DNA of 32,000 nt, taken from contig NC_007517.1 of assembly GCF_000012925.1 (NCBI RefSeq), positions 3,900,001 to 3,932,000 on the forward strand, read 5' to 3'. The position numbers and the translations under genes are program-made. This stretch comes from Geobacter metallireducens GS-15 (lineage in GTDB: Bacteria > Desulfobacterota > Desulfuromonadia > Geobacterales > Geobacteraceae). The notes under the pieces were generated by a model that saw only the letters and a list, made by a program, of their open reading frames with translations, was not told where the DNA came from and did not search any database. Positions 8,581 to 23,416 of this stretch are shown here, piece by piece. Position 1 is the stretch's first letter. Each line of letters opens with the position of its first letter.

Positions 8581-9952
8581 GGGCTCTTTAGCAGAATCTG
8601 TGGTGACACAGGGGTTCTGGCAAGTCGCCAAGTGTGTGATATAGCGCCACTTGCAGGCACTTGATGGTTCGGAAACCGTACGCTTTTCTGATAGTCAGTT
8701 TTGCTTTGAGGTTCAGACCCTCTACCGCGCCGCTGGAAAGTCGGCCTTTTGCCTTGAACCAGTTGAGAATCATCGGTTTGTGGTTGCGTAACATCCTGGC
8801 AACCTTCTTCATCGGTTCCAGGTCAGTTTGCATTGTCCTGATGACCCAGTCGTCGAGGAACTTGCCAGCAAAGTCAGACCGCTGGTAGTCCCAGAACTGC
8901 TGAAAGTCCTCGCGCAGCAGATATGCCTTGATTGATGAGAGGTTGAGCTTGAGCAAATCTCCCAATCGTGACGTCTGCTTCTCGGACAGATTTTCCGGCC
9001 GTTTCAGCAGCAACCAACGGCCCTTTTCCAGGACGTTCTCCTGCTTTACGGCCTTGAACTCCTTGGCTTCGGTGCGCCGAACCTCGTCAATCGCTTCGTT
9101 AAACTTCCGCATGATGTGGAAGCGGTCGAGGATGTTCACGGCATTGGGTGCCCGCTTGGCGATAACCTTGAGATACGGTGCCCACATGTCGCTGCAGACA
9201 TACTTGAGCTTGGCGCTGCGTTCTTTGCCGAATTCCCGAAAGAAGCGCAGTAGCGTTCTTATCCGACGTTGCGGACCACACCAGAGAAGACGCCTGACGC
9301 CGGCATTGAGCTGATAGACCATCGTAAGATACTGATGGCCCTTGAAGACGGCAATTTCATCAACACCGATTTCCGTAACGCCATCAAGGTTTCTGTTTGC
9401 CAGGCCGTAATCGACAGCATACTGCACCGCCCGAAAGATGCTGTCCCAACTGGTCTTAAAGATTTCGGCAACTTCCTTCCAGGAGAGTCGCCGAGCCCAC
9501 CGGGCAAGATAGACCTGGTACGAGATCGTCATTTGCTCTTTGCCATACCCCCAGGGGAGGGATTCAACCTTTACCCCATGGATTGGGCACAGAACCCGAC
9601 GGGGAGCGTAGCGAAAGAAGACCTTGAACGCCCAGATCGGCACATACTCGAACAGTCGGGCCGGTTGCGTGTCGTATGTCTTGCCTCGCTTGCCACATTC
9701 CGGGCATTCGGGCTTGCTGTTGCGACGAGCCTTGATGTCAATGACTAGTGCTTCTGAGCCGCCGACTTTCGCCAGTCGGCAATCTCCGTAAATGAAGGAC
9801 TTGAAACGCTCGAACTTGTTCAGTACAGTCTTGATAAGCATTGCTTCTCCCGTGTCGGACTTGATCGTTTCTCGCAAAAACAATCTTATCCTTCACGGAG
9901 GGGCAATGCCCTTATTTTTTCAGCCAACTACCCACAGATTCTGCGGACGAGG
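8581..9952 (-). mobile_element. ISL3-family insertion sequence, apparently intact (~1.37 kb)
   Basis: Terminal inverted repeats: GGGCTCTTTAGCAGAATCTGTGG (8581-8603) against the rc of 9932-9952 (CCTCGTCCGCAGAATCTGTGG), with a perfect 13-bp core GCAGAATCTGTGG. An 8-bp direct repeat CTCTCATG sits at 8573-8580 and 9953-9960, matching the 8-bp target duplication typical of ISL3. Boundaries are good to about +/-5 bp. Confidence 0.8.
8588..9841 (-). CDS. ISL3-family transposase
   Basis: 417 aa from MLIKTVLNKFERFKSF. It has a zinc-finger CPECG...CPIHG, a DDE region (GVDEIAV...CSDMW...) and the characteristic C-terminal ...LPEPLCHHRFC, which ends inside the left IR. Confidence 0.9.
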   Translation of the reverse strand: MLIKTVLNKFERFKSFIYGDCRLAKVGGSEALVIDIKARRNSKPECPECGKRGKTYDTQPARLFEYVPIWAFKVFFRYAPRRVLCPIHGVKVESLPWGYGKEQMTISYQVYLARWARRLSWKEVAEIFKTSWDSIFRAVQYAVDYGLANRNLDGVTEIGVDEIAVFKGHQYLTMVYQLNAGVRRLLWCGPQRRIRTLLRFFREFGKERSAKLKYVCSDMWAPYLKVIAKRAPNAVNILDRFHIMRKFNEAIDEVRRTEAKEFKAVKQENVLEKGRWLLLKRPENLSEKQTSRLGDLLKLNLSSIKAYLLREDFQQFWDYQRSDFAGKFLDDWVIRTMQTDLEPMKKVARMLRNHKPMILNWFKAKGRLSSGAVEGLNLKAKLTIRKAYGFRTIKCLQVALYHTLGDLPEPLCHHRFC

Positions 9953-10769: not shown

Positions 10770-10845
<76 letters not shown>

Positions 10846-13010: not shown

Positions 13011-13038
13011 TTGACAAAGCCTCATTGTGATGTACTAT
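13011..13038 (+). promoter_or_regulatory. Candidate sigma-70 promoter driving the riboswitch leader
   Basis: TTGACA (13011-13016), a 16-nt spacer, TACTAT (13033-13038). It lies about 25 nt upstream of the first aptamer. Confidence 0.45.
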
Positions 13039-13060: not shown

Positions 13061-13145
13061 GATAGACGACAATACTTAACCATTCGCGAGAATGGGGCGG
13101 AAAGCCTATAGGGTCTCATGGAGACAGCCGGGTTGCCGAAATATC
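13061..13145 (+). promoter_or_regulatory. GEMM-I-type cyclic-dinucleotide riboswitch aptamer, copy 1
   Basis: ...AATACTTAACCATTCGCGAGAATGGGGCGGAAAGCCTATAGGGTCTCATGGAGACAGCCGGGTTGCCGAAATATC aligns position for position with the Vc2 GEMM-I core (AAACC-AUUC-GNRA-GAGUGGG-ACGCAAAGCC...AGCGGGGUUACCGA). It has a GNRA loop (GCGA), the AAAGCC junction and GGGTTGCCGA. A occupies the G20-equivalent position (13074), and a C21/G46 pair covaries with the Vc2 G21/C46 pair. Confidence 0.8.
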
Positions 13146-13171
13146 ACACGATATTTGGTCCCGGCTTTTTT
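13127..13171 (+). terminator. Intrinsic terminator / expression platform of riboswitch 1
   Basis: GCCGGG (13127-13132) pairs with CCCGGC (13160-13165), with an inner helix CCGAAATATC/GATATTTGG, followed by T6. The 5' arm is shared with the 3' strand of the aptamer, so the two folds are mutually exclusive. Confidence 0.75.
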
Positions 13172-13268
13172 ATTGTGCAAACCATGACTGGAGGCCGAGC
13201 CGACAAGGAGTGCGTCTCTGACGTGGCGGTGCCTGTGGGCGCCGGAAAACTGCAACAAAATAGTTGGT

Positions 13269-13353
13269 GGTAGACGATAATACTAAACCATTCGCGAGAA
13301 TGGGGCGGAAAGCCTATAGGGTCTCCCTGAGACAGCCGGGTTGCCGAAATATC
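13269..13353 (+). promoter_or_regulatory. GEMM-I-type cyclic-dinucleotide riboswitch aptamer, copy 2
   Basis: Same architecture exactly 208 nt downstream of copy 1. The P2 hairpin loop differs (GTCTC-CCT-GAGAC against GTCTC-ATG-GAGAC) while the stem is kept. A again occupies the G20-equivalent position (13282). Confidence 0.8.
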
Positions 13354-13379
13354 ACGCGATATTTGGTCCCGGCTTTTTT
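13335..13379 (+). terminator. Intrinsic terminator / expression platform of riboswitch 2
   Basis: GCCGGG (13335-13340) pairs with CCCGGC (13368-13373), followed by T6 (13374-13379). Layout is the same as copy 1. Confidence 0.75.
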
Positions 13380-13431: not shown

Positions 13432-14748
13432 ATGTACCGAATCGCTGACCTGCCCCTCTCTACCGCCTGTTTTCGCCTGATCGCTCTAGGGGTATGTATC
13501 CTATCCCTTCAAGGATGCGCTGTACTCAGGGGTGCCCAGGAGCAATCATCGCTTGCGCCAGGCCATCTTGCCGCGGAGATCGAACGAAATGACTTTCCCG
13601 TTGCCAATGGCGACGACGTCATTGGCCGGCTTGCCGTCCTCAGACTTGAACAGGGGGATACGCTCCCGGATATTGCGAGACATTTCGGTCTGGGGATCAC
13701 GGCACTCAGCGCCGCCAATCCGGGCATGGATGTCTGGGCGCCCGAGGCCGGAAAACCGGTCATCCTGCCCCTGAGCTTTGTCCTGCCGGACACCCCGAGA
13801 CGAGGGATTGTGGTCAACGTCGCCACAATGAGGCTCTTTCAGTACAAGGGCGATGGCGCCTCCCTGGCGGTATCCACCTACCCCGTCGGCGTCGGCACCA
13901 AGGAGCGCCCCACCCCCACCGGCCCAACGCGGGTGTATCGCAAGGCGGCCCGGCCGACCTGGCATGTGCCTGCTTCAATTGCCGAGGACCATCGAAAGAA
14001 GGGGGATCCGCTCCCCCCGGAAGTTCCGCCGGGGCCGGAGAATCCCCTGGGGGAATACGCTCTCTACCTGAGCAAACCGGGGTATCTGATCCATGGCACG
14101 AACAAGCCGGCCAGCATCGGGCTTAAGGCAACCAATGGCTGTATGAGGCTCTATCCGGAAAACATCGAGGTGCTCTATAACGACACGCCGGTCAACACCC
14201 CGGTGGCCATTGTCAACCAACCCTACCTCATCGGTCAACGGGACGGGGTGCTTTACCTGGAAGCCCATACCCCGCTGGAAGACGCAGGCACTCTCGAACT
14301 GACGAAGGTGTATGAAAAGTTGAGAGCCATTGAAAAGAAAACAGGCCGTGCGCTTGACTGGACAAAAATCAGAAAAGTTCAGGCCGAGGCCCGGGGGATT
14401 CCGGTTCCCATCCTCGAACTGCGCCAGGGAAGTGAAAAAGGGATTCCGCAAACCATGGAAGTCGGGCACCCCGACACACTGCACGGCAGACCGGAAATAC
14501 CGGACCTGAAACCGGATGCCTGGTATGTTCTGGCTGCCGATGTGCGTAACGAGCTTGAGGCCCGGAGGATTGCCGCCATCATCAACCACCAGGGCCCTCC
14601 GATACCGGCACGGGTCTTGGCAAAGAACAACGCCTACCGTGTCATCGCCGGCCCGTTCGCTGATGGCAGTAGGGCCAGGGATGCGGCCAAACGCCTGAAG
14701 ATCGATTTGGAAATCGACGGCATATTGATTGATCCTGCTGGGAAGTAG
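13432..14748 (+). CDS. L,D-transpeptidase lipoprotein of the ErfK/YbiS/YcfS/YnhG type, with LysM-like N-domain, YkuD catalytic domain and C-terminal SPOR domain
   Basis: Start MYRIADLPLSTACFRLIALGVCILSLQGC (lipobox). LysM-like segment LRLEQGDTLPDIARHFGLGITALSAANPG. YkuD core LPDTPRRGIVVNVATMRLFQY...PENPLGEYALYL...YLIHGTNKPASIGLKATNGCMRL (catalytic His and Cys). SPOR-like tail WYVLAADVRNELEARRIAAII...YRVIAGPFADGSRARDAAKRLK. Confidence 0.88.
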   Translation: MYRIADLPLSTACFRLIALGVCILSLQGCAVLRGAQEQSSLAPGHLAAEIERNDFPVANGDDVIGRLAVLRLEQGDTLPDIARHFGLGITALSAANPGMDVWAPEAGKPVILPLSFVLPDTPRRGIVVNVATMRLFQYKGDGASLAVSTYPVGVGTKERPTPTGPTRVYRKAARPTWHVPASIAEDHRKKGDPLPPEVPPGPENPLGEYALYLSKPGYLIHGTNKPASIGLKATNGCMRLYPENIEVLYNDTPVNTPVAIVNQPYLIGQRDGVLYLEAHTPLEDAGTLELTKVYEKLRAIEKKTGRALDWTKIRKVQAEARGIPVPILELRQGSEKGIPQTMEVGHPDTLHGRPEIPDLKPDAWYVLAADVRNELEARRIAAIINHQGPPIPARVLAKNNAYRVIAGPFADGSRARDAAKRLKIDLEIDGILIDPAGK

Positions 14749-14799
14749 ACAGCCCCTCTTCCTGGCTGGGCAACCTAGAGAGAAAGGAGGTGATTAGCG

Positions 14800-15102
14800 A
14801 TGAAAGGGATTCTCTTGCTGATCGCAATGCTGCTCGTTCTCCCTGTCACCATGATTGGTTGTGCAACCTCCGGTGACCTGGAGAGAGTGCAGGCGGATCA
14901 AAGAATGCTTGATGCGAAAGTCGAGCAGGCAGTGCAGGATGCACAAGCAGCCAAGGCCTCAGCCGATGCGGCCAAAGCAAAGGCAGATAATGCCACAGCC
15001 CGCGCCGATAGTGCTATAAAGGCGGCTGAGGAAAGGGAACGGATCGCCGATGAAAAGGCGAAAAAGGCTGACGCTACTTTCCAGAAATCCATGAGGAAGT
15101 AA
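14800..15102 (+). CDS. Braun-lipoprotein-like (Lpp-like) alanine-zipper lipoprotein ending in Arg-Lys
   Basis: Strong RBS AAGGAGGTGA 8 nt upstream. Signal plus lipobox MKGILLLIAMLLVLPVTMIGC. The mature part is an Ala/Lys/Asp-rich coiled coil (LDAKVEQAVQDAQAAKASADAAKAKADNATARAD) that resembles E. coli Lpp ([34 protein letters not shown]). The C-terminus is ...KSMRK, compared with Lpp ...KYRK. Confidence 0.8.
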   Translation: MKGILLLIAMLLVLPVTMIGCATSGDLERVQADQRMLDAKVEQAVQDAQAAKASADAAKAKADNATARADSAIKAAEERERIADEKAKKADATFQKSMRK

Positions 15103-15148
15103 GGCACATTCAAGGGGGCCGTCGCGTTACCTGCGACGCCCGGACAAG

Positions 15149-15178
15149 AAATGGCAGGGTCCACGCGCCCTGCCATTT
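15149..15178 (+). terminator. Strong hairpin after the lpp-like gene (possible partial terminator or attenuator)
   Basis: AAATGGCAGGG (15149-15159) pairs with CCCTGCCATTT (15168-15178), an 11-bp perfect stem. The U tract is only short and interrupted (TTTCCTTATCC). Confidence 0.45.
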
Positions 15179-15276
15179 CCTTATCCGGCAGGTGGGTCCG
15201 GCCGGACATTTTGAACATACGGACATCAGGCTCCCGGAACGGGATATTCCTGATGATTCCAGCAAGGGGTGAGGAG

Positions 15277-16278
15277 ATGAGGGGACCGGAAATCTTTCGC
15301 CGTGGACCGTCTGCGGAATCAGGACGGTCTTTGGCCGATACGGCAACAAAACAAAGCCGGCCGGGCAAACGCCTTAGCTTTTTTCGTATCGGCATCCTGG
15401 TAACACCGATGCTCATGGCGGGATGCGGTCACCTTCAGTCCAAGCCGACCTTTGAAGAAGCGAATGACTTGTTTAATCAGGGAAGCTACCAGGCCTCGCT
15501 GAGCAAATACGAGCAGATTGTCGACCAGCAACCTGCGGCGGGCGACAGGGCTCTCTTCGAGATGGGTATCGTTTATTCGTACCCGAAGAACGAGCGCAAA
15601 GATTATCAGAAATCCCTGGAGTGCTTTCAGCGGGTCATAAAGGATTATCCCGGGAGCCACTACCGGCAGAACAGTCAGACGATGGCATCGTATATCAATA
15701 CTGTCCCGGTCAAGGACGCGACGATTGCCACGCAGCAAACGAGGATCGAGGCCCTCCAGCGCGAGCTCACGGGCAAAGAGGATGAGATCGCTGCCCTGCG
15801 GGGAAAGATTGAAGCGCTTGAAAAAAATGTGTTTGCCTACGCCATCCGGAAGCCATCGCTCGACAAGATCCTGATAGAAAAACAGGCACGACGCATGATG
15901 CTGATCTCAAAGGGGGCGGTGCTCAAAACCTACAGGATCGCCCTGGGGGGAGACCCCATCGGCCCGAAAGAACGGCAAGGCGACAACAAAACCCCGGAAG
16001 GAGCCTACACCATCGATGCCAGAAACAGGGATAGCCGTTATCACCGGGCTCTCCATATCTCCTATCCCAACGAGAGGGACAGGAAGCGCGCCCGGGAACT
16101 CGGAGTCTCCCCGGGCGGAAACATCATGATCCACGGCATCAAGAATGGTTTCTCGTGGGTTGGAGATGCTCACGCAGGGGTGGACTGGACAAAGGGGTGC
16201 ATTGCCGTAACGGACGAGGAAATAGAGGAAATTGACACGTTGGCGCCCAATGGCACCATTGTCGAGATCAGGCCATAG
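15277..16278 (+). CDS. YkuD-domain protein of the YafK/LdtF(DpaA)-like type with N-terminal TPR-like and coiled-coil regions; probable lipoprotein
   Basis: Catalytic domain ...GPKERQGDNKTPEGAYTIDARNRDSRYHRALHISYPNERDRKRARELGVSPGGNIMIHG...WTKGCIAV. It resembles E. coli YafK as I recall it (GPKQRQGDFKSPEGFY...MIHG...GC). TPR-like segment FEEANDLFNQGSYQASLSKYEQIV...FQRVIKDYPGSHY. Lipobox-like LMAGC. The start is uncertain: ATG at 15277 or 15253, or a TTG further downstream that gives a normal signal peptide KRLSFFRIGILVTPMLMAGC. Confidence 0.75.
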   Translation: MRGPEIFRRGPSAESGRSLADTATKQSRPGKRLSFFRIGILVTPMLMAGCGHLQSKPTFEEANDLFNQGSYQASLSKYEQIVDQQPAAGDRALFEMGIVYSYPKNERKDYQKSLECFQRVIKDYPGSHYRQNSQTMASYINTVPVKDATIATQQTRIEALQRELTGKEDEIAALRGKIEALEKNVFAYAIRKPSLDKILIEKQARRMMLISKGAVLKTYRIALGGDPIGPKERQGDNKTPEGAYTIDARNRDSRYHRALHISYPNERDRKRARELGVSPGGNIMIHGIKNGFSWVGDAHAGVDWTKGCIAVTDEEIEEIDTLAPNGTIVEIRP

Positions 16279-17456: not shown

Positions 17457-19697
17457 CTACACGAGCTTCGTGTTCTTGACCGGCAAGCGGCGGATGCGCC
17501 GGCCGGTGGCGGCGAAGAGCGCATTGCAGATCGCCGGCGCAATGGGGGGAACGCCCGGTTCACCCGCGCCGGTCGGCAGGGCGTCGGAGGGGACGATGTG
17601 CACGTGGACCTCCCGCGGGGCCTCGGCCATCCGCGCCACCGGGTAGTTGTCGAAGTTGGATTGGGTGATCCGGCCATGGGCTGCCGTGATCTCCCCCATG
17701 AGCGCAAGGCTCGCGCCGAATACGGCGGCCCCCTCGAACTGGGCCGTCACCCGCTCCGGATGGATCACCCGCCCGGCATCCAGGGCCATGTCGATCCGCG
17801 GGATGGTGATCCGCCCCTGGTCGTCCACCTGGAGATCAACCACCACCGCCACGTAGGTGAGGAAGCTCCGATGGGCGGCAAAACCGAGCGCACGCCCCTT
17901 TTCCGGTTTCCGCTTCGCCCACCCCGACTTCTCCGCCACCACTTCGATCACCCGCCGCAGCCGTCCCGTCTCCCAGGGGTATTGATCGGCCGGCTTGCCG
18001 TAATTGGCGTTCTTCGTCCCCTCGGCCGTGAAATCGATGGTCCGGGGCGGGCCGAGAAGGTCGAGGAAATACTCGATCCGGTCGCGCCCCGCGGCGGCGG
18101 CAAGCTCATCGGTGAACGACTGGACCGCGAAGGCGTGGTAGATATTGGCCACCGACCGCAACCAGCCGATCCGGACGTGGGGCTCTGCCGGTCCGTTTTC
18201 CGCGCGCAGGTTCGGGATGGCGAACGGCACGTCCACCCACCCCTGGGCCAGCTCCCCGTCACCGCCGTAGCGCACCGACGCGTCGAAGGTGGAGGGGATC
18301 GGCGGGAAGGCGCACCGCTGCAGCCATGCGGTCGGCTTTCCCCGGGCATCCGTCGCCGCCTTCAGGTACATGGCCGCCACGGCGTGGTAGTAGTCGTGGG
18401 CGATGTCGTCCTCCCGGGTCCAGGTGACCTGCACCGGCCTGCCGACGTTCTTGGACAGCAGCGCCGCCTCCACGACGTAATCGGGTTTCGATTTCCGGCC
18501 GAAGGCGCCCCCCAGAAGTGTCACGTGGCACGTCACGTCCTCCTTGCGGATCGTGAGCGCCTTGGCCACCGCATCCTGCACCGCCTGCGGGTTCTGGGTC
18601 GCGGCCCAGGCCGTCACCTTGCCGTTCTTGAACTCGGCCACCGCCGCCGGAGGCTCCATGGAGGCGTGGGCGAGGTGGGGAACATAGTACTCCGCCTCCA
18701 GCACCGTCCCCCCCTTGGCAAATTCCGCATCCACGTCCCCGACGGCCCTCACTGCCTTCTGGGGCTGCCGGACGGTTTCCAGGAGCGATTTCTCGAAGGC
18801 TGCCGAATCATAGCTGCCGTTCTCCCCTGCCTCCCAGGCGACCTTCAGTTTCTTGCGCCCCTCCATGGCCGCCCAGCTGCTCCCGGCGATCACCGCCACT
18901 CCCCCCAGCGCCTTGAACCCGTAGGGAGGGATGGGGGTCTCCAGCACCACCGTGCGCAGCACTCCCCTGACCTTGCGGACTTCCCGGTCATCATGGGATT
19001 TCAGTCTCCCACCGAGGACCGGCGGCCGCTCGATGGAGGCATAGGCCATCTTCGGCATCCGGGCGTCGATGCCGTAGACGGCCTTTCCCGTGCAGATGCC
19101 GGCCAGATCGACGATGGGCACCCCGTGGCCCACGTAGCGGAAGTCGGCCGGCGCCTTGAAGCGGAGCTCATCCGCGGCGGGGACCGGCTGGCGTGCGGCA
19201 AGGGCGGCCAGTTCGCCGAAGCCGAGGGTCTTGCCGCCGGTATGCACAACCTGGTGATTGCTGGCCCGGCATTCGGCAACCGGCACTCCCCACCGGGCAG
19301 CGGCGGCCCGCTCGAGCATGAGACGCGCCGTGGCCCCGGCCTGGCGCAGGGCGCCGTAGAAATCGCGGATCGACTTGGAACCGTCGGTGTTCTGGTCGCC
19401 GTACCGGGGGTCGCCGATGGCCTGCTCGACCCTGACCCGCCGCCAGTCGGCGTCCAGCTCGTCGGCTGCCACCATCGGCAGAGAGGTGCGGATGCCGGTC
19501 CCCATCTCCGAGCGATGGGCGACGATGATCACCGTGCCGTCCGGCTCGATCCCCAGGTAGACGCCGGGATGCCACGTCTGCGCCGCCAGGGCGTCGAGGG
19601 CTCCGCCGGGAAGAACACGGGCGCAGAGGATCAGGGCCCCCGCCGAAAACGTCGTCTTGAGAAATCCGCGGCGGCTCATGCGAACCACGGCGCTCAT
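17457..19697 (-). CDS. Molybdopterin-binding large subunit of an aldehyde oxidase/xanthine dehydrogenase-family hydroxylase (IorB-like), with Tat signal
   Basis: True start [24 protein letters not shown] (twin-arginine motif) at 19697, with GGAGGTG upstream. The ATGA overlaps the small-subunit stop. 746 aa. The 875-aa ORF in the track is an upstream read-through extension. Confidence 0.85.
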
Positions 19698-20155
19698 GGC
19701 TTCACCTCCGCTGCCCGTTTGATCCCCTGGCGGATCCGCTCGTAGGTTCCGCAGCGGCAGATATTGCCTCCCATCGCCTCGTCGATCTCCTGATCGGTCG
19801 GATGGGGCTTTCCCTTGAGAAGAGCCGCGGCCTGCATAATCTGGCCGCTCTGGCAGTAGCCGCACTGGGGCACGTTCAGCTCCTGCCAGGCCTTTTGCAG
19901 CGGGTGGTCTCCCCGGGCGCTCAACCCCTCGATGGTGACGATCTTCTTCCCCGCCACGCTCTTCATGGTCGTTATGCAGCTGCGCGTCGCCTCCCCGTTG
20001 ATCTGCACCGTGCAAGCCCCGCAGAGCCCCTTGCCGCAGCCGTACTTGGTGCCGGTCAGGTGCAGTTCGTCCCGGAGATACCACAGAAGCGGCATCTCCG
20101 GTTCCCCTGCGAACGAGTGCGTAACGCCGTTGACCTTGAACGTGATCCTTTTCAT
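19694..20155 (-). CDS. (2Fe-2S)-binding small subunit of the Mo-hydroxylase (IorA-like)
   Basis: [10 protein letters not shown]..., two cluster motifs [11 protein letters not shown] and CGYCQSG...CRCGTY. RBS GGAGGAG upstream of the ATG at 20155. Confidence 0.88.
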
Positions 20156-21107: not shown

Positions 21108-23378
21108 TCACGACCGTTTCCTCACCATCCGGTAGGTGAGCCCCGTGGCGGCCAGGAGGGGAAAAGCGCCCGCGACGATGAAAACGAGGTCTCCCGGCAT
21201 CCGGAGCCACTCGATGAGGCGGGGGATCGTCCCGTTGAGGAACCCGGGTCCCCGGGCGTGCCAGTAGCCGTGGTCCAGGACGTCGAAAAGCTGGAGCACC
21301 CCGCCGGGGAAGAGATTGGTCACCACCATGAGGGCCAGGCCGATGTTCAGCCCCCAGAAGGAGAACCGGACGAATTTCTCCGGTCCGGCCCACTGCTCGT
21401 CGGTCAGCACCTGGCGCAGGGCAAAGACCGTAAGCGCCACTGCAAGCATGCCGAAGACCCCCATCATGGCGGCGTGGCCGTGGTTCGGGGTGAGCATGGT
21501 CCCCACCTCGAAGTAGCTGACGATGGGAAGGTTGATGAGGAAACCGAACACGCCAGCGCCGACGAAGTTCCAGAAGCCGACGGCGATCAGGAAGTAAAAC
21601 GTCCACTTGTGGGGGATAGAGACCGGTTTGTTGCAGACGTCGCACTTTCCCCGGGTGAGCTTGACGAAGTCCCACGCATCGAGGGTAAGGAGGGTGAGGG
21701 GGACCACCTCCAGGGCCGAGAACATGGCGGCAAGAGCCATGGTGACGGCGGACTGCCCGGTCCAGTACCAGTGGTGCCCGGTGCCGACGATGCCGCTTCC
21801 CAGGTAGAGGAGCGCATCCAGGTAGACCACCCGCGCCGCTGTCAGGTGGGAGACCATGCCGAGGTTGTAGAAGATGACCGCCACCATGGCGGTCACGAAG
21901 ACCTCGAAGAATCCCTCGACCCAAAGATGGATGATCCAGAACCGCCAGGTGTCCACCACGGAGAAATGGGTGGTGCCGGTGAAGAACATGGCGGGGAGGT
22001 AGAAAAGCGGTATGGCCAGGGCGCCGTACAGGAAGAGGGAGGCGATCTCGCGGCGCTCCGGGTCCTGCCTGGCCGGGGCGAGCGCCCGGAACAGGAGGAA
22101 TCCCCAGACCACAAGCCCCACCGCCAGGAGGATCTGCCAGGCGCGCCCCAGGTCGAGGTATTCCCACCCCTGGTGGCCGAACCAGAACCAGAGTGAGCCG
22201 AGCATCTGCCGGACGCCGAGCATCTCGCCCGCGAGGCTCCCCACCACGACAACGACCAGGGCGCCGAAGAGGAAATTGATCCCCCCCACCTGCCCCTTGG
22301 GCTCCTTGCCGAGGGAGGGGGCCAGAAGGAGCCCCCCCGCCACATAGGCGGTGGCAACCCAGAAGATCGCCAACTGGAGGTGCCAGGTGCGGAGGATGTG
22401 GCTGGGAAGGAGGGAGGAGATGTCGATCCCGTAGAAACTCTCCGGGTCGACCCGGTAGTGGACCGTTGCCCCTCCCACCAGGGTCTGGGCGAGGAAGAGG
22501 AGCGCCACGACGACGAAGTACTTGATCGTGGCCCGCTGGCTGTCGGTGGTGGCGCCGGGGAGCATCTGGGGATGGATATGCTCCCCCCTCCCCCGCCAGC
22601 CGAGAAAATCGAACTTGCCGAAGGCGAACAGGACGGCCGCGGTGCCGCCCAGGAGCATGATCAGGCTGAGGGCGCTCCAGAGGAAGGCATCGCTGGTGGG
22701 TCGGTTGCCGACCGCCGGGTCATAGGGGAAGTTGTTTGTATAGGAATACGGCTTGCCGGGACGGTTGGCGACCGACGCCCACGCGGTCCAGGCGAAAAAG
22801 GAGGTGAGCTGCTCCAGTTCCCGCGGGTCGCTGATGTAGGCGCCGGGGAGTCCTCCATCGTTTGTGGGGTGGGAGAAATAGTCCCGCCATTTCCGAATCT
22901 GCTGCCGGTACGAAGCCGCTTCGGGCTCCAGGAAGGTGAGGGTCCGGGTCCGGAAATCATAGCGGTTCTCCTTCAGAAGGGTCCCCACCGCGCCGGCAAC
23001 GGTTTCCCGCTCCGCGGCATTCAGCCCTCCGGCATCCCGGCCATGGCGCTGCCGGGCGAGGGACTGGGCAGTATCGCCCGCCAGCGTGTGGAGGTATTCC
23101 GCCGAAAAATCGGGCCCCAGGTAGGCGCCGTGCCCCCAGATGGTCCCGTTCTCCATGAGGCCGTACCGGAGGAACACCTGCTGTCCCGCAAGGATGTCGT
23201 CCCCGGTGAAGATGGTTGTGCCGTCCCCGCTCACCACCCTGTCGGGGATCGGCGGCGCATCCCGGTAGCTCCGGACGGCAATCCAGATCAACACCGTGAA
23301 CCCGAGCACGAGGACCAGGATGACGGAATTCCGCCACCAGGGCGAAAGGGTTTCGACCGGCGTGATTCGTTCGGCCAT
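21108..23378 (-). CDS. norZ: Quinol-dependent nitric oxide reductase large subunit (qNOR, NorZ/NorB-type heme-copper oxidase)
   Basis: 756 aa from MAERITPVETLSPWW, with GGAGGG upstream. It has the N-terminal extension with one TM helix plus a periplasmic domain that is typical of qNOR. Heme-copper motifs seen: IIHLWVEGFFEVF, GTGHHWYW, LTPNHGHAAMMGVFG. Confidence 0.88.
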   Translation of the reverse strand: MAERITPVETLSPWWRNSVILVLVLGFTVLIWIAVRSYRDAPPIPDRVVSGDGTTIFTGDDILAGQQVFLRYGLMENGTIWGHGAYLGPDFSAEYLHTLAGDTAQSLARQRHGRDAGGLNAAERETVAGAVGTLLKENRYDFRTRTLTFLEPEAASYRQQIRKWRDYFSHPTNDGGLPGAYISDPRELEQLTSFFAWTAWASVANRPGKPYSYTNNFPYDPAVGNRPTSDAFLWSALSLIMLLGGTAAVLFAFGKFDFLGWRGRGEHIHPQMLPGATTDSQRATIKYFVVVALLFLAQTLVGGATVHYRVDPESFYGIDISSLLPSHILRTWHLQLAIFWVATAYVAGGLLLAPSLGKEPKGQVGGINFLFGALVVVVVGSLAGEMLGVRQMLGSLWFWFGHQGWEYLDLGRAWQILLAVGLVVWGFLLFRALAPARQDPERREIASLFLYGALAIPLFYLPAMFFTGTTHFSVVDTWRFWIIHLWVEGFFEVFVTAMVAVIFYNLGMVSHLTAARVVYLDALLYLGSGIVGTGHHWYWTGQSAVTMALAAMFSALEVVPLTLLTLDAWDFVKLTRGKCDVCNKPVSIPHKWTFYFLIAVGFWNFVGAGVFGFLINLPIVSYFEVGTMLTPNHGHAAMMGVFGMLAVALTVFALRQVLTDEQWAGPEKFVRFSFWGLNIGLALMVVTNLFPGGVLQLFDVLDHGYWHARGPGFLNGTIPRLIEWLRMPGDLVFIVAGAFPLLAATGLTYRMVRKRS

Positions 23379-23416
23379 GTGCGTCCCTCCTTCCCCGCTT
23401 CCATCCTTGGACATTG

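Follow-up and report, generated by a model that had tools for sequence, protein, structure and literature searches.

The 32,000-nucleotide window analyzed here, positions 3,900,001 to 3,932,000 of contig NC_007517.1 of Geobacter metallireducens GS-15, carries a gene for a small lipoprotein of the Lpp/OprI family at positions 14800–15102 of the forward strand. This gene, referred to below as lpp, is the orthologue of GSU0182 of Geobacter sulfurreducens, as seen from gene order, protein lengths, domain annotations and riboswitches. Its product is likely a tether of the Lpp/OprI type that is linked by the L,D-transpeptidase (LDT) encoded immediately upstream, released by a second YkuD protein encoded downstream, and switched by the second messenger cyclic GMP-AMP (cGAMP). 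The covalent attachment of the lipoprotein to peptidoglycan, on which this reading turns, is probable from the sequence evidence set out below.

The lpp gene runs from an ATG at 14800 to a stop codon ending at 15102 and encodes 100 amino acids. A Shine–Dalgarno sequence, GGAGG, can be read at 14786–14790 (+), 9 nucleotides 5′ of the ATG. The product is MKGILLLIAMLLVLPVTMIG|CATSG...FQKSMRK, in which residues 1–20 are the signal peptide, Cys21 is the predicted lipid-modified residue and Arg99-Lys100 form the terminus. The lipobox is MIGC with alanine at +2, and thus contains the cysteine expected of the Lpp/OprI family. The mature protein has 80 residues, with 29% alanine, 12% lysine and 11% aspartate. 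Its heptad a and d positions are 73% hydrophobic, mostly alanine, a value reached in 19 of 5000 shuffled sequences, in line with the alanine-rich heptad coiled coil of the family. The first-pass annotation of this DNA had described a lipoprotein signal followed by alanine at +2, an Ala/Lys/Asp-rich heptad coiled coil and an SMRK terminus in a non-enterobacterial, Desulfuromonadales-type context. The translation, the composition and the a/d statistics agree with this description, and the identical protein is that of Geobacter metallireducens.

Profile models place the lipoprotein in the Lpp family as a homologue belonging to the OprI branch. It scores 49.1 bits against the Pfam model PF11839 ‘Alanine_zipper’ (gathering threshold 23.1) and 76.5 bits against NCBIfam NF040598 ‘Lpp/OprI family alanine-zipper lipoprotein’ (cut-off 43). 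In control runs, OprI of Pseudomonas aeruginosa matched no model but PF11839, where its 44.8 bits fall short of the score of the window lipoprotein, and Lpp of Escherichia coli matched PF04728 only, at 89.5 bits. PF04728 (Pfam LPP) does not detect the window lipoprotein even at E ≤ 10 and likewise misses OprI; against NF011925, the E. coli Lpp model, the window lipoprotein reaches 25.8 bits, below the cut-off of 108. A search with PF04728, proposed earlier as a check, would therefore have failed, as the model misses both proteins that PF11839 finds. Close relatives are named ‘Lpp/OprI family alanine-zipper lipoprotein’ by NCBI and ‘murein lipoprotein’ by JGI.

A visible likeness to E. coli Lpp had also been claimed. 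The likeness is real at the profile level, with an hhalign probability of 95.7% for a profile of diverse relatives against E. coli Lpp, but it is weak in sequence, where phmmer gives E = 0.002–0.1 against Lpp chains of the Protein Data Bank (PDB). BLASTP against OprI returns E = 0.007. In a diverse alignment, Lpp/OprI-type relatives have in common a GC(A/S)(T/S) lipobox region and a C-terminal F/M-x-K-x-x-x-K motif. The low pairwise similarity to Lpp and OprI, together with scores short of the E. coli Lpp models, would suit an independent, convergent Lpp-like tether in the Desulfuromonadales, as coiled coils can converge. Against this stand the two OprI-containing family models whose cut-offs are exceeded, the hhalign match, the lipobox-region and C-terminal motifs shared with the family, and an LDT partner that is homologous to LdtPae2 of P. 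aeruginosa, with the same neighboring position in Pseudomonas and E. coli. Because the family-model cut-offs are passed and the profile matches Lpp, the protein is treated as a homologue and not as an independent invention. Independent origin was rejected on the family-model and profile evidence, and is extremely improbable; the first-pass annotation’s framing of the gene as an independent instance falls with it.

The terminal lysine was followed through several sets of relatives. A locus scan over one genome per GTDB species, with an alignment of the closer homologues as query, returned 80 loci (L001–L080), and an exhaustive search over 1.84 billion cluster representatives yielded 74 relatives at 50% clustering. 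The C-terminal lysine expected of the Lpp/OprI family, seen in the window protein as SMRK, is present in 119 of 120 close homologues of 68–100% identity (SMRK in 84, SMKK in 34 and SMMK in one), in 79 of the 80 genomic loci and in 57 of the 74 representatives. The remaining 17 representatives look truncated or frameshifted, or finish in adapter-derived sequence. Conservation of this residue had been put forward as a check on the cross-linking idea, and it is borne out by these counts. Across 38 representatives with 27–65% identity to the query, the lipobox Cys21 and the terminal Lys100 are the only invariant columns; as that alignment was built from chosen intact sequences, the invariance is partly a product of selection. 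One sequence from the representative search, P0128, has 29 extra residues after ...FQKSMKK that would bury the terminal lysine, probably through loss of the stop codon or faulty assembly. A profile search with diverse relatives in a large protein database returned the same close Geobacter-like group, leaving the taxonomic breadth unchanged.

The length of the mature lipoprotein varies in steps of one heptad. Among the 80 loci, 73 residues are found at two, 80 at 19, 87 at 25, 94 at 26 and 101 at three; this ladder covers 75 loci, with five lengths off the series. The longer tethers contain additional copies of a AEERERIADEKA-like segment. Variation in exact heptad steps fits a coiled-coil spacer whose register is preserved. 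If fully helical, 80–101 residues would span, as a rough estimate, 12–15 nm, compared with about 8.7 nm for E. coli Lpp.

The gene upstream of lpp, at 13432–14748 (+), encodes an LDT lipoprotein with an LQGC lipobox, a LysM domain (19 bits in Pfam), a YkuD domain with the motif TNGCMR (77 bits) and a C-terminal SPOR domain (42 bits). Its longest open reading frame (ORF) begins at 13264 and overlaps the second of two riboswitch aptamers described below, and the start is taken as the ATG at 13432 because of this overlap. The enzyme has 438 amino acids in the window, and GSU0183 has 435. The gene ends 51 nucleotides before lpp and is co-directional with it. The closest solved relative is PDB entry 9tyw, with 234 bits, 43% identity over 276 residues and E = 4e-74. 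No paper describing 9tyw or 9tz4 was found, and the identities of both were set by sequence. By this route 9tyw is P. aeruginosa LdtPae2, as the LdtPae2 sequence aligned in the supplement of PMC10434034 has the identical catalytic stretch, and on a metagenome contig a 100%-identical oprI is adjoined by a gene for a 100%-identical 9tyw sequence. Lipoprotein-anchoring LDTs of the LdtPae2/ErfK-YbiS-YcfS lineage are expected to carry a YkuD domain with (S/T)xGCh(R/N); the upstream enzyme does so as TNGCMR, and xxGChR is found in 74 of 75 orthologues. The enzyme has no significant similarity to E. coli DpaA. It is the probable Lpp-anchoring enzyme, in that motif and homology suggest that it attaches the lipoprotein to the cell wall.

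A second YkuD lipoprotein gene lies downstream of lpp at 15331–16278 (+). Its start is uncertain, with TTG at 15331 favored, ATG at 15277 possible and the longest ORF running from 15151; the G. sulfurreducens counterpart, GSU0181, has 309 amino acids. The product has a MAGC lipobox, a TPR region with weak Pfam matches and a short coiled coil, as well as a YkuD domain (63 bits) with the motif TKGCIA. Its catalytic core shares 35% identity with that of E. coli DpaA (YafK; E = 8e-18), its PDB match is 8ikr and its top NCBIfam match is LdtF_DpaA_YafK. The variant SxGChA, with alanine in place of arginine, has been proposed as the signature of amidases (PMC10434034). TKGCIA follows this DpaA-type pattern, and TxGCIA is found in 67 of 72 orthologues. 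The local sequence, IMIHG...DWT[KN]GCIA...GT[IL][IV]EI, is nearly identical to that of LdtPae3 of P. aeruginosa. The downstream protein, DpaA/YafK/LdtPae3-like, is thus a candidate amidase that probably releases the lipoprotein. Orthologue comparison indicates a lipoprotein-type signal in both YkuD enzymes, with a conserved G-C behind a hydrophobic stretch. The motif split between them follows the function-linked patterns of the literature, transpeptidase upstream and amidase downstream.

The spacer between lpp and the downstream gene, 15103–15330 (+), is 228 nucleotides long. It contains two stable hairpins at 15114–15179 (+), with an RNA folding energy of −47 kcal/mol and z = −3.3 for 15100–15200. 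The G. sulfurreducens annotation has a ‘predicted RNA’ at the equivalent position. The hairpins possibly form an attenuator or a 3′ structure that stabilizes the mRNA.

Conservation of gene order supplies the broader context. The 80 loci come from Geobacterales, Syntrophales (Smithella, Syntrophus), Syntrophorhabdus, Desulfobacterales and Nitrospirota (Nitrospiraceae, Thermodesulfovibrionia and Dissulfurispiraceae), with one metagenome-assembled genome (MAG) labeled Acidobacteriota and one labeled Actinomycetota. Both YkuD genes adjoin lpp in 72 of the 80. The order is LDT-lpp-YkuD2 at 60 loci and YkuD2-LDT-lpp, the Syntrophales type, at 11, and the LDT gene is inverted in one. In seven of the other eight, the contig stops at the expected place of the missing gene. 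The 80 loci do not share the genes that lie on either side of the block in the window, and the three-gene block is taken as the unit because the adjacency of YkuD genes and lpp is kept while the outer genes change. It was also noted that the LDT and DpaA-like proteins of Nitrospirota loci are about 65–72% identical to those of Geobacter, and those of other Desulfobacterota orders 59–69%. The Nitrospirota similarity could point to horizontal transfer of the block or to mislabeled MAGs. The ‘Actinomycetota’ MAG (L018) and the ‘Acidobacteriota’ MAG (L032) both carry the block, the latter with a riboswitch of the Geobacterales type.

Neighboring LDT genes are also found in Gammaproteobacteria. In 61 of 80 Pseudomonas-type loci (L082–L161), oprI is followed after about 185 bp by a convergent ldtPae2, and no DpaA-like gene was found near oprI in these loci. 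In E. coli K-12 (L162:3422-4726), ldtE follows lpp after 64 bp, again convergently. Adjacency of lpp and an LDT gene is common to Gammaproteobacteria and the Desulfobacterota/Nitrospirota clade, and the linkage is weaker in the gammaproteobacterial systems.

A characterized member of the family is OprI. Like the window lipoprotein, it matches PF11839, ends in Arg-Lys and has the gene of its anchoring LDT as a neighbor. Studies in P. aeruginosa have shown that OprI is bound to peptidoglycan, as a Tri-Lys-Arg muropeptide is lost on deletion of oprI or ldtPae2, and that anchoring through the Arg-Lys end is carried out by LdtPae2 alone (PMC10434034). LdtPae2 is the 43%-identical relative of the upstream enzyme, and LdtPae3 shares the DWTxGCIA motif with the downstream one. 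The two systems differ in the length of the mature lipoprotein, which is 64 residues in OprI and 80 in the window, and in gene arrangement. The Pseudomonas LDT gene is convergent and not co-transcribed, with the amidase-type gene elsewhere, whereas the window genes form a co-directional operon. The Pseudomonas and E. coli counterparts of the YkuD enzymes are much shorter (9tyw has 322 residues) and appear to be without the SPOR and TPR/coiled-coil regions. No riboswitch is known from the Pseudomonas OprI system. The E. coli system, comprising Lpp with LdtA/B/C and DpaA, is similar to that of the window in the lipobox, the coiled coil, the Arg-Lys end and the position of lpp beside an LDT gene. 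It differs in that its genes are scattered, that the adjacent LdtE is a reported cross-linker and that the window lipoprotein is 22 residues longer.

Several observations weigh against the reading given above, and they are set out here together with the alternatives to it. The main rival to the assignment of the upstream enzyme comes from the E. coli precedent. LdtE (YnhG), encoded beside lpp, has been reported to form 3-3 cross-links, and LDT function is not readable from phylogeny (PMC10434034). Anchoring activity is thus not proven by adjacency, because the product of the lpp-adjacent E. coli gene is a reported cross-linker. The upstream enzyme is 35% identical to LdtE (E = 8e-46), and its best NCBIfam model is LdtE. 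Its equivalog score, 172, is far under the cut-off of 480. It also possesses a SPOR domain. SPOR domains target septal, denuded glycan. The lipoprotein may accordingly be anchored by another LDT encoded elsewhere, with the LysM-YkuD-SPOR enzyme acting as a septum-targeted 3-3 cross-linker. The enzyme is nearer to LdtPae2 than to LdtE on both identity and E-value, its gene is co-directional with lpp and close upstream, and the two are co-regulated in G. sulfurreducens. In addition, the LDT-lpp synteny is kept across two phyla while the flanks change. With this evidence the cross-linker alternative is distinctly unlikely, and the upstream enzyme is retained as the probable anchoring LDT.

The release function is weighed in the same way. 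The downstream enzyme scores 49.6 bits against NF040599, through the catalytic core only, and so falls far under the equivalog cut-off of 365. Compared with E. coli DpaA, it has a lipid anchor, a TPR region and a coiled coil in addition, and the amidase role of LdtPae3, its nearest Pseudomonas relative, is itself tentative (PMC10434034). In place of an amidase, these points would suit a non-catalytic scaffold or a second transpeptidase with another acceptor, which might attach further envelope proteins or provide additional anchoring. The similarity to DpaA is, on the other side, specific to the downstream enzyme and absent from the upstream LDT, the exchange of arginine for alanine in the GChA motif is kept in nearly all of the downstream orthologues (67/72), and the local sequence is almost that of LdtPae3. 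A role other than amidase is judged unlikely.

The attachment itself may also be doubted. The lipoprotein could be a free outer-membrane coiled coil that is never covalently attached, serving as a spacer or being exposed at the surface, with the terminal lysine a relic or a site of non-covalent contact. E. coli Lpp exists largely in a free form. The Geobacter literature holds no biochemical evidence of a peptidoglycan-bound form, and a 2026 Nat Commun paper that treats G. sulfurreducens Lpp as covalent contains no muropeptide, sacculus or LDT data. Two further points count against the main reading as a whole. The penultimate residue, which is arginine in Lpp and OprI, is variable in the family at large (R, K, M, S, T, L, Q and others), and the only clear exception to the three-gene block among the 80 loci, a Nitrospiraceae MAG (L047:1-6731), has lpp and a DpaA-like gene with no LDT gene within 5 kb upstream. 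Permanent non-attachment is nevertheless very unlikely, as the terminal lysine is one of two residues invariant at 27–65% identity, lpp is part of a compact, conserved operon whose two YkuD enzymes have complementary motifs, and OprI, the characterized member of the family, is covalently attached. The earlier idea of an Lpp-type cross-link through the terminal lysine is strongly supported by the family assignment, the conservation of the lysine and the flanking YkuD genes; the independent origin that came with it did not stand.

Two riboswitch units at 13064–13379 (+), spaced 208 nucleotides apart, lie directly 5′ of the LDT-lpp-DpaA-like operon. GEMM-I aptamer 1 occupies 13064–13141 (+) and scores 41.9 bits against RF01051, and aptamer 2, a near-duplicate, occupies 13272–13349 (+) and scores 45.4 bits; both exceed the gathering threshold of 35. 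Aptamer 1 is followed by intrinsic terminator 1 at 13126–13171 (+), AGCCGGGUUGCCGAAAU...AUUUGGUCCCGGC with a U6 tract, whose 5′ arm and the 3′ strand of the aptamer are the same stretch. Intrinsic terminator 2, also with U6, lies at 13334–13379 (+) and overlaps the 3′ strand of aptamer 2. A simple terminator scan missed these terminators on the + strand, and they were found by reading of the sequence and by RNAalifold. The RNAalifold consensus of 15 units has a conserved terminator stem with GU/GC changes. A sigma-70-like promoter candidate, TTGACA-16-TACTAT, at 13011–13038 (+), lies just 5′ of riboswitch 1; it comes from a consensus scan with 10 of 12 matches and is a pattern only.

Both aptamers have an A at model position 10, the equivalent of G20 in Vc2, and this column is invariant in the 15 units. 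An A at this position marks the cGAMP-binding GEMM-Ib class, and some A20 riboswitches bind both cyclic di-GMP and cGAMP (PMC6140456). The ligand should block termination, since the hairpin takes its 5′ arm from the 3′ strand of the aptamer, and the tandem aptamers are accordingly predicted to form an ON switch, of the cGAMP type by the A20 signature. The GEMM-Ib riboswitches of Geobacter (for example Gs1761, upstream of pgcA) likewise have a GEMM-I fold, A20 and a competing terminator and act as ON switches, and tandem riboswitches have been described in further operons of Geobacter. Unlike in those cases, the ligand selectivity of the window aptamers is a prediction from the A20 signature. 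Of the 80 loci, 34, all of Geobacterales type, have one to three riboswitch-terminator units 5′ of the LDT gene, and none was found in the Syntrophales, Desulfobacterales or Nitrospirota loci of that set. In one Geobacteraceae MAG (L050:3021-3561), three units stand in a row 5′ of the LDT gene, compared with two in the window.

The operon of G. sulfurreducens, GSUR3002/GSUR3001-GSU0183-GSU0182-GSU0181, has an anatomy identical to that of the window (Hallberg et al., eLife 2019, PMC6456294). There, the riboswitches GSUR3002 and GSUR3001 stand ahead of GSU0183, a YkuD LDT lipoprotein with SPOR. In the annotation, GSU0182 is a ‘lipoprotein’ of 303 nucleotides and 100 amino acids, followed by a predicted RNA and by GSU0181, a YkuD family, TPR domain-containing protein. 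Deletion of gacA, the cGAMP synthase gene, lowers the expression of GSU0183, GSU0182 and GSU0181 from 53, 175 and 128 to 3, 7 and 6, respectively, which corresponds to log2 changes of −4.1 to −4.6, or a drop of about 16–25-fold (PMC6456294). Deletion of esnD raises the expression of GSU0183–0181. The lpp transcript level in G. sulfurreducens is above those of both flanking genes. The published description ends at ‘uncharacterized lipoprotein transpeptidases’, and it neither separates a ligase from an amidase nor reads the lipoprotein as an Lpp tether.

From these components a sequence of events can be proposed. The lipoprotein would be lipidated at Cys21 and then form a trimeric coiled coil that reaches about 12 nm across the periplasm from the outer membrane. 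The ε-amino group of Lys100 would be amide-linked to meso-diaminopimelic acid (meso-DAP) of a peptidoglycan tripeptide stem, with the LdtPae2-like LDT upstream, bearing TNGCMR, as the putative linking enzyme. The DpaA/LdtPae3-like protein downstream, bearing TKGCIA, would hydrolyze the DAP-Lys bond and thereby set the balance of bound and free forms. In Geobacterales, the whole module would be turned ON by 3′,3′-cGAMP through the two tandem GEMM-Ib riboswitch-terminators. The balance of evidence leans towards the operon as a self-contained module for attachment and detachment, comprising an anchoring LDT, a tether and a DpaA-type amidase, all lipid-anchored, which is gated by cGAMP in Geobacterales and retunes tethering.

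The remaining genes noted in the window are on either side of this operon. On the 3′ side and on the opposite strand, a gene for a molybdopterin-binding oxidoreductase occupies 17457–20084 (−), and a quinol-type nitric-oxide-reductase-like gene, with a NorB cytochrome-c-like domain and COX1, occupies 21108–23414 (−); both are unrelated to lpp. An ISL3-family transposase gene at 8588–9883 (−; DDE_Tnp_ISL3, 264 bits) and a tRNA-Asn(GTT) gene at 10770–10845 (+) lie about 0.9 kb apart.

Much of this system has been described before in separate places. Annotation and transcriptomics had already covered the gene, its family, the operon and the cGAMP control, and the novelty that the first-pass annotation saw in the gene was misplaced, as relatives already bear the name Lpp/OprI or murein lipoprotein and two transcriptome papers list GSU0182 as ‘Murein lipoprotein’. 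Geobacter Lpp has been discussed in eLife 2022 and in Nat Commun 2026. Lpp proteins of at least 99 residues were recorded in Geobacter by Mandela et al., and in the 2026 paper G. sulfurreducens Lpp is treated as a covalent Braun lipoprotein that is upregulated at low Na+. What is added here is the division of labor between the YkuD enzymes, anchor against release, as proposed from motif and homology, together with the conservation of the block across two phyla, the heptad-quantized tether length and the reason why a survey based on PF04728 missed the block. Within the literature searched, no paper was found that states the YkuD split, the two-phylum block, the heptad ladder or the PF04728 miss. 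As the annotation, the riboswitch regulation and a remark on ‘long Lpp’ were published separately, the value of the present analysis lies in joining them into one testable model and not in discovery.

A widely cited survey confined Lpp to four gammaproteobacterial orders, having searched with PF04728 at the gathering threshold only. It saw Lpp in those four orders alone because PF04728 misses OprI and the branch of the window lipoprotein. If the reading given here is true, covalent tethering of the Lpp type reaches beyond Gammaproteobacteria, contrary to that survey, and is probably far wider than the survey implies, because a gene of the OprI branch travels with both types of YkuD gene in two further phyla. 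The Geobacter module is among the most strongly cGAMP-dependent operons, and would link this second messenger to envelope mechanics, vesiculation and extracellular electron transfer. Tethering, the width of the periplasm (with tethers of 73–101 residues) and vesiculation would then be retuned as the cell switches to particle-associated extracellular electron transfer.

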